A stretch of DNA of 64,000 bases from contig CBDETY010000003.1 in the NCBI GenBank assembly GCA_965243025.1, positions 5,760,001-5,824,000 of the forward strand. Reading direction: 5' to 3'. The notes under the pieces are model-generated. The model was given only the letters and a program-made list of their open reading frames with translations. It did not search any database and was not told where the DNA came from. This document shows positions 45,184 to 45,368 of this stretch, piece after piece. Position numbers and translations under genes: made by a program. Each line of letters opens with the position of its first letter. Positions within the stretch are counted from its first letter, which is position 1. This DNA is from Candidatus Latescibacterota bacterium (GTDB taxonomy: Bacteria > Latescibacterota > UBA2968 > UBA8231).

Positions 45184-45368
45184 GCTGCAGAGCATACCTG
45201 CCCATCCGCGAAGGAAAGGCCCGGAACATTCTGATTGACCACAGAATAATCGCCTGACAACGCAACCATACCATCCGCGAAGGAAGGGCGCCGGAACATT
45301 CTGATCGACCACAGAATCAGCCGCCTGACAACGCAGCCATACCATCCGCGAAGGTAAGGCGCCGGAAC

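Follow-up and report, generated by a model that had tools for sequence, protein, structure and literature searches.

Background

Among described repeat systems, the MIRU-VNTR loci of Mycobacterium are composed of 40-100 bp units arranged head to tail in transcribed intergenic regions, and contain small ORFs that overlap the neighbouring gene (Supply et al. 1997, as cited in PMC3184786). According to the same source, MIRUs form a dispersed family, with ~40-50 loci in a genome, and transposition may be their mode of insertion, and the REP2 repeats of Neisseria, which place a promoter, a ribosome-binding site (RBS) and an ATG before genes, are dispersed with 26 and 23 copies in two genomes (PMC3184786). 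Tandem (satellite) arrays in general are described as having a homogeneous centre and divergent ends (PMC5615363). In termination-reinitiation coupling, stop and start codons overlap, and overlaps of 4 or 1 nt are reported as the prevalent ones (PMC10666635). A literature search for MIRUs joined with translational coupling returned nothing. In CRISPR arrays, a degenerate terminal repeat is found far from the active end.

The window analysed here is a 64,000-nt stretch of the genome of a Candidatus Latescibacterota bacterium (assembly GCA_965243025.1, contig CBDETY010000003.1, positions 5,760,001 to 5,824,000). Directly before a large gene with He_PIG repeats it carries a tandem array whose units are copies of that gene's own start region. 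Judged from its sequence and from that of its relatives, the array is probably a lineage-specific minisatellite (VNTR) of a translation-initiation region, in which selection would act on the last unit only.

Genomes and sequence comparisons

The window's genome (G000) is 6.8 Mb in size. It was compared with two congeners (G001 and G002), with a close relative (G092, locus L058) and with a strain ~3% diverged that was found in a sequencing run (X10; 17 differences in 579 nt downstream of the array). Relatives were searched among 75 other genomes of the family, and the order-level set consisted of the same 76 genomes. A scan with an 18-nt IUPAC pattern was unspecific: among the matches listed, L057 and L058 were the 2 of 235 fetched loci with a blastn match, and L057 matched as G001 does. 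The unit tree was calculated by maximum likelihood from 10 rows and 66 columns, using G001 and G002 as outgroups. Contigs were also taken from the runs X1, X5 and X6, which come from three studies, possibly including the one from which the window itself derives.

Organization of the array

Tandem Repeats Finder placed a single array at 45202-45619, with a period of 71, 5.9 copies, 92% matches and a score of 696, and a repeat search resolved it into six copies spaced 69-71 nt apart (Table 1). Each 71-nt unit comprises an RBS, a start codon and the first 14 codons of the He_PIG gene. The units abut directly, with the period equal to the unit length and spacers absent, and the repeat search found no inverted repeats in 45000-45800. 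Head-to-tail copies at a constant period are the arrangement of a local tandem duplication or VNTR (minisatellite).

Table 1. Features of the array and its surroundings, in window coordinates
Feature	Coordinates	Strand	Description
PAP2-superfamily phosphatase ORF	43849..44757	+	Pfam PF01569, E 1.1e-11
Leader/promoter-like stretch	44914..45106	+	Conserved in G001, G002 and G092
Small ORF	45107..45163	+	18 codons; strong Shine-Dalgarno AAGGAG 7 nt before ATG; anti-SD duplex -8.3 kcal/mol
Unit 1	45202..45270	+	69 nt; ATT 45228-45230; CGCCTG; frame ends at TGA 45255-45257 after 9 codons
Unit 2	45271..45341	+	ATT 45298-45300; CGCCTG; four private substitutions
Unit 3	45342..45412	+	ATG 45369; private A-to-T (GGTAAGG); 25-codon uORF 45369-45446
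Unit 4	45413..45483	+	ATG 45440; uORF 45440-45517; derived GGTGCC common to unit 5
Unit 5	45484..45554	+	ATG 45511; uORF 45511-45588, TAA overlapping the main start
Unit 6	45555..45619	+	Original copy; real start codon 45582; outgroup states kept
Main ORF	45582..52268	+	2228 aa; from ORF list; He_PIG PF05345, E 2.8e-126

A preliminary description of this DNA had reported that the two distal copies carry ATT in place of ATG and CGCCTG in place of CGCGTG, and the alignment bears out both: ATG is present in each of copies 3 to 6, and column 55 holds C in copies 1-2 and G in copies 3-6. The shortening of copy 1 by 2 nt was likewise recovered, as two single bases missing at columns 20 and 48, together with its stop after nine codons. 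The early TAA that had been noted in the frame of copy 2 (45355-45357) is indeed located inside unit 3, where it results from an A-to-T change at column 14 of that copy (AAGGTAAGG). Near identity, stated for copies 3-6, applies to copies 3-5, which show 1-3 mutual differences over 64 shared columns, but not to copy 6, which differs from these three by 4-5. Counted from copy 5, there are 1, 2, 8 and 5 differences to copies 4, 3, 2 and 1, respectively.

The period of 71 equals 3 x 24 - 1 and so is not divisible by 3, with the result that a 25-codon uORF starts at every intact upstream ATG. The uORFs of units 3, 4 and 5 all terminate 7 nt into the next start (ATGCTGA, or ATGCTAA at the last unit). 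The main frame, read from 45582, is unaffected by the number of repeats since every additional unit is situated upstream of the last ATG; in this the locus differs from a phase-variable contingency locus, in which the frame would depend on copy number.

The He_PIG gene and its 5' region

The main ORF contains at least 15 He_PIG repeats (15 stretches; Pfam), a putative Ig or dystroglycan-type cadherin-like domain, and its N-terminus looks signal-peptide-like when the translation is inspected by eye. An intergenic region of 824 nt separates the end of the PAP2 ORF (44757) from the gene. Matches to the leader by blastn begin at window position 44914 in G001 and 44957 in G002, and the leader has 94.5% identity to L058. 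No Rfam family matched the leader at E <= 1. The predicted fold of the whole leader is more stable than 20 shuffles (z = -3.47), a value to be read with the repeat array in mind, which inflates fold z-scores.

A promoter scan of the intergenic region and the units found no plus-strand promoter. Its sole site is on the minus strand (44986-44957), a sigma-70-like sequence (CTGACA, 18 nt, TATGAT; 10 of 12 positions) that faces away from the He_PIG gene and falls within the stretch most conserved among G000, G001, G002 and G092. A minus-strand ORF of 149 aa (44502-44951; no Pfam match), which overlaps the PAP2 ORF of the opposite strand, would begin ~6 nt past this site.

In G001 and G002, the ATG that matches 45107 runs for 41 and 40 codons, respectively, in frame into the main ORF (L005 1410-1532; L006 1652-1771). 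In G000 the small ORF stops at 18 codons because a 1-nt loss brings in an early TGA, and in G092 the corresponding stretch (45107-45163) is deleted. The in-frame extension is confined to the genus (2 of 75 relatives). Differences between G001 and G002 along it are distributed 7/6/8 over the codon positions, with 6 synonymous and 10 non-synonymous codons, and carry no coding signature. The extension might be the ancestral N-terminus of the protein, put out of frame by the 71-nt duplication, and the array would then lie within an older ORF; the codon-position counts and the restriction to one genus both weigh against a firm reading of this kind.

An SD-like AAAGG precedes the start codon of every unit by 9 nt, and the predicted start-duplex energies range from -6.5 to -8.9 kcal/mol. 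The anti-SD motif used for this calculation matches the organism's own 16S rRNA, whose 3' end has a canonical CCUCC tail (...GGATCACCTCCTTTCT), which makes SD-led initiation plausible. The single 16S rRNA gene detected in G000 is located at C3:5749626-5751188, ~9 kb upstream of the window start. A TTGACC hexamer is present in each unit, and unit 5 taken alone is predicted to form a local hairpin that includes its start codon (-17.1 kcal/mol).

Distribution among relatives and strains

The 5' region was present in 2 of the 75 family relatives, G001 and G002 (and in the same number of 40 in a narrower comparison), and three further genomes of the family match the He_PIG coding part only. G001 and G002 possess exactly one unit each, at the same place, from which it follows that the array is a lineage-specific amplification. 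Unit number thus varies by lineage as in a VNTR, with 1 in G001, 1 in G002, 2 in G092 and 6 in G000. The junction between successive units, GCCATACCATCC, equals the sequence found upstream of the single copy in G001, and the duplicated piece is therefore local DNA.

G092 is 92-96% identical to the window over 3 kb. Its two units are identical to copies 5 and 6, and its main gene is open. The left junction in G092 corresponds to the window minus 45032-45482, that is, a 170-nt piece of leader plus copies 1-4, although G092 is a low-coverage short-read MAG in which this junction could be misassembled. Since the leader is kept in G001, G002 and G000, the arrangement is most simply explained by one deletion from a multi-unit array. 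The loss of the distal units with the gene still open indicates that these units are dispensable.

In the X10 strain, copies 1, 2 and 3 differ from those of the window by 2, 3 and 7 substitutions, respectively. A G-to-T change at 45371 turns the ATG of copy 3 into ATT and is accompanied by six further changes in that copy, and the stretch 45472-45568, which takes in copy 5 and the first part of copy 6, is unchanged. At columns 36 and 51, copy 1 of this strain bears the markers of copy 2 and vice versa, a pattern suggestive of exchange between adjacent units.

Among G000, X10 and G092, no difference was seen in units 5 and 6, and the flanks differ by 2-13%. A special conservation of these two units was considered and dropped, as 4 of 19 upstream 71-nt bins are equally free of differences in G092 and the result was not significant.

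A loose end at 45554 was seen in X5, where a copy-6-like unit is preceded by leader-like, non-repeat sequence, as in the single-unit arrangement of G002. This contig belongs to another relative, so that single-unit and six-unit lineages co-occur in the sample. A second, partial copy of the locus was seen in G001 (L010 1480-1760, minus strand; G001:C7), in which PAP2-side sequence is joined to codons past the start. It is without leader, SD and ATG and ends after ~200 nt, which suggests a truncated segmental duplicate.

Several of the runs that contain the organism are labelled sponge metagenome, and the bacterium is probably sponge-associated. The sole RNA run listed (X20) had a shared-word fraction of 0.08.

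Read support for the array

Logan contigs of X1, X5 and X6 match 44800/44964-45284 and 45256-45390, which cover the left flank and copies 1-3, without a single mismatch. The degenerate copies do not stem from misassembly. The count of six units rests on the assembly itself, because no short contig bridges copies 3 to 5. An estimate of copy number from contig depth was discarded: unitigs of copies 4/5 have about twice the depth of the flanks in X1, and depth is not copy number.

History of the units

Where copies 1-5 have the derived G and T, copy 6 is still ancestral, reading CTA at column 33 and, like G001, C at column 47; the triplets concerned are CTA, and ACC against ACA in G001. Derived states within the array are T at column 19, found in copies 4 and 5, and the combination of ATT and CGCCTG, common to copies 1 and 2. 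Column 66, with A in copies 1, 4 and 5, is homoplastic.

In the unit tree, the outgroups are followed by copy 6 together with the second unit of G092, and then by a clade (87/89) that unites copies 1-5 and the first unit of G092. Copies 1 and 2 are sisters within it (85/91). Support is moderate throughout, no branch attaining 95/80. Read plainly, this topology would mean that an initial duplicate became different from the real start before it was amplified, with copies 1-5 all descending from that one diverged duplicate and with copies 4 and 5, one base apart, as the youngest pair. Given that copy 6 has outgroup states where copies 1-5 are derived, new units did not come from the gene-proximal unit. 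The sister relationship of copies 1 and 2, which share ATT and CGCCTG, further implies that, once the ATG was gone, the distal end underwent a duplication or conversion.

The distal degeneracy described in the preliminary account does exist as a pattern. Distal units vary in X10, including the ATT of copy 3, and the two units kept by G092 are the proximal ones, so that degenerate units are not at random positions among the few comparators that are available (G000, X10 and G092). The polarity is real and modestly supported, as the three lineages are not independent. The two silent units of G000 represent one shared event, and by our own count over five dispensable units the chance of its falling at the distal position is about 1 in 4.

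Other arrays in the genome

At a period of 30-200 and at least 2.8 copies, 65 arrays were detected in G000. Sixty-one have a period divisible by 3 and look like protein repeats; the 71-nt array is one of the four that do not. A second array of a start region is present at G000:C3:5213530-5213833 (103 nt x 3.0, 92% matches, minus strand), where the repeated piece takes in an AAGGAG Shine-Dalgarno, the ATG and the initial codons of a 513-aa ORF starting at 5213630. With two arrays of this make-up, duplications of an SD and ATG recur in the genome. In the 103-nt array the gene-proximal unit differs and the two distal units resemble each other. The remaining two arrays of this class, C3:4354810-4355071 (92 nt x 2.8, 98%) and C3:701287-701521 (80 nt x 2.9, 77%), are located at or near ORF ends.

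Interpretation

We consider a minisatellite of the initiation region the probable explanation of the locus. A 71-nt piece with the ATG, its weak Shine-Dalgarno and 14 codons from the beginning of the gene would have been duplicated in tandem, presumably by replication slippage or unequal recombination, and the extra copy would afterwards have been amplified. Copy 6 alone would be the gene's real start and be held by selection, and the five upstream units would be non-essential copies in the leader. Units 1 and 2, as the older distal ones, would have drifted, losing the ATG and gaining indels and stops, and copies 3-5 would either be younger or still be exchanging sequence. Ribosomes may be handed from one uORF to the next, in which case this would be a by-product of the duplication rather than a designed device. 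The polarity could then follow from selection confined to the proximal unit, from the age structure of the copies and from the general divergence of tandem arrays at their ends, with no need for a directional duplication machinery. Three observations sit less easily with a minisatellite. The invariance of units 5 and 6, not significant as it is, could mean constraint on the non-coding unit 5; the recurrence of ATG to ATT in X10 unit 3 could be due to selection against upstream starts instead of drift, or to a short conversion tract from unit 2; and the last junction still has the stop/start overlap, with TAA instead of TGA.

Those same observations are what would be expected if the uORFs formed a translational relay, in which termination-reinitiation passes ribosomes along, adhesin output depends on how many starts are active and the silencing of distal units is selected. 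The locus has a stop near each downstream start and an SD before it, as a relay of coupled uORFs would, with three intact 25-codon uORFs ending 7 nt into the next ATG (the last junction, with its TAA, included), AAAGG 9 nt before each ATG and a canonical 16S tail. Units 5 and 6 are invariant in three lineages, ATT arises again in X10 unit 3, and short overlaps are what coupling needs according to PMC10666635. The overlap here is nevertheless 7 nt and not one of the common lengths given in that source, 4 or 1 nt (PMC10666635), and it arises automatically, because the +1 frame of the duplicated 71-nt unit holds a TGA or TAA just after the ATG; the single unit of G001 already has a TAG at the same offset. 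One unit moreover suffices in the congeners and two in G092, and the invariance of units 5 and 6 is within background (4 of 19 bins). We regard such a relay as unlikely. Improbable as well is an extended form of the idea, a start-site rheostat, in which the array as such would be selected, an intact uORF relay would feed the real start, and lineages would adjust the output of a host-adhesion protein by silencing distal starts singly (ATT, in units 1-2 of G000 and also in unit 3 of X10) or by deleting them (G092), the proximal two staying invariant.

The preliminary description had favoured a directional process that adds or homogenises units at the gene-proximal end, so that units age towards the distal end in a CRISPR-like manner. 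Several features are consistent with it: the most similar pair, copies 4 and 5, is proximal, divergence from copy 5 grows distally (1, 2, 8 and 5 differences), and the units that vary in X10 or are missing in G092 are the distal ones. The tree does not sustain it. The proximal copy 6 is neither the template nor homogenised, its 4-5 differences all being ancestral states, and the sister copies 1 and 2 with their shared ATT and CGCCTG indicate that the distal end was duplicated or converted too; for the same two reasons the directional duplication mechanism proposed with it finds no support. Of the CRISPR-like polarity without spacers that had been claimed, the degenerate far end and the absence of spacers stand, and polar growth from the proximal repeat does not, as unit 6 falls outside the group formed by units 1-5. 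Neither a leader nor a cas-like context is evident. Taking the silencing as one shared event, an adjacent silent pair has a 1 in 4 chance of lying at the distal end of five dispensable units. We rate a directional process as very improbable.

Still less probable, to the point of being barely tenable, are reiterated binding sites, on DNA or RNA, for a regulator or small RNA, or reiterated promoters, in which the start codons would be incidental. The unit hairpin with its start codon, the fold of the leader against its shuffles and the hexamer in every unit could be read this way. Against it are the lack of a plus-strand promoter-like site in the scan, of an Rfam match and of inverted repeats in 45000-45800, the inflation of the fold z-score by the repeats and the single unit of the relatives. 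That misassembly or long-read indel errors made the degenerate copies or the whole array is scarcely credible, for the single-base deletions of copy 1 are typical of long-read errors but short-read contigs of three studies match the left flank and copies 1-3 without a difference, and X10 keeps both deletions (no gap was reported inside copy 1).

Significance

If the minisatellite reading is right, the locus is a clean, datable case of a duplicated translation start with decaying spares. For annotation, the last ATG would be taken as the true start and the 25-codon ORFs not as genes. Degenerate end units do not imply a CRISPR-like mechanism. Cadherin-like attachment proteins are reported to be enriched in sponge-associated genomes (PMC8163846). 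Were it true that the number of live starts sets the level of this giant cadherin-like adhesin, tuning by repeat number would be a simple route to host-specific expression.

Comparison with known systems

The array resembles CRISPR arrays in that degeneracy is greatest in the unit most distant from the 'active' end, and the resemblance is limited to that. It differs in having no spacers and no palindromic repeat, in its confinement to a single locus, in that its units are copies of a translation start and in that the proximal unit is not the template; neither spacer-separated repeats nor polar growth from the proximal repeat was found.

As in REP2 of Neisseria, a repeat supplies a ribosome-binding site together with an ATG upstream of an adhesion-related gene, but REP2, as described in PMC3184786, is dispersed, not tandem, and not derived from the gene downstream. 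As in termination-reinitiation coupling, the stop codons of the uORFs overlap the next ATG by a few bases; compared with the coupled genes of PMC10666635, the overlap is 7 nt and the 'upstream genes' are 25 codons long, duplicating the gene's own N-terminus and continuing into another frame.

The array is like the satellite arrays of PMC5615363 in that similarity is highest among its central units 3-5, with divergence in the unit at either end. Unlike in the general case given there, the two ends diverge for different reasons, the distal end being decayed, with derived changes and indels, and the proximal end being the selected, conserved original.

With the MIRU-VNTR loci, as summarized in PMC3184786, it has in common the unit size, the head-to-tail arrangement, the intergenic position, the variable copy number (1, 1, 2 and 6) and the overlapping small ORFs, here the uORF 45511-45588 that extends 7 nt over the ATG at 45582. 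Unlike a MIRU, the array unit occurs at one locus only and duplicates the start region of the gene itself. No other copies of the unit were found in G000, where 213 nt of the array matched this locus only (three overlapping matches), and the dispersal of MIRUs is thus the feature that separates the two. The nearest known kind is a bacterial VNTR.
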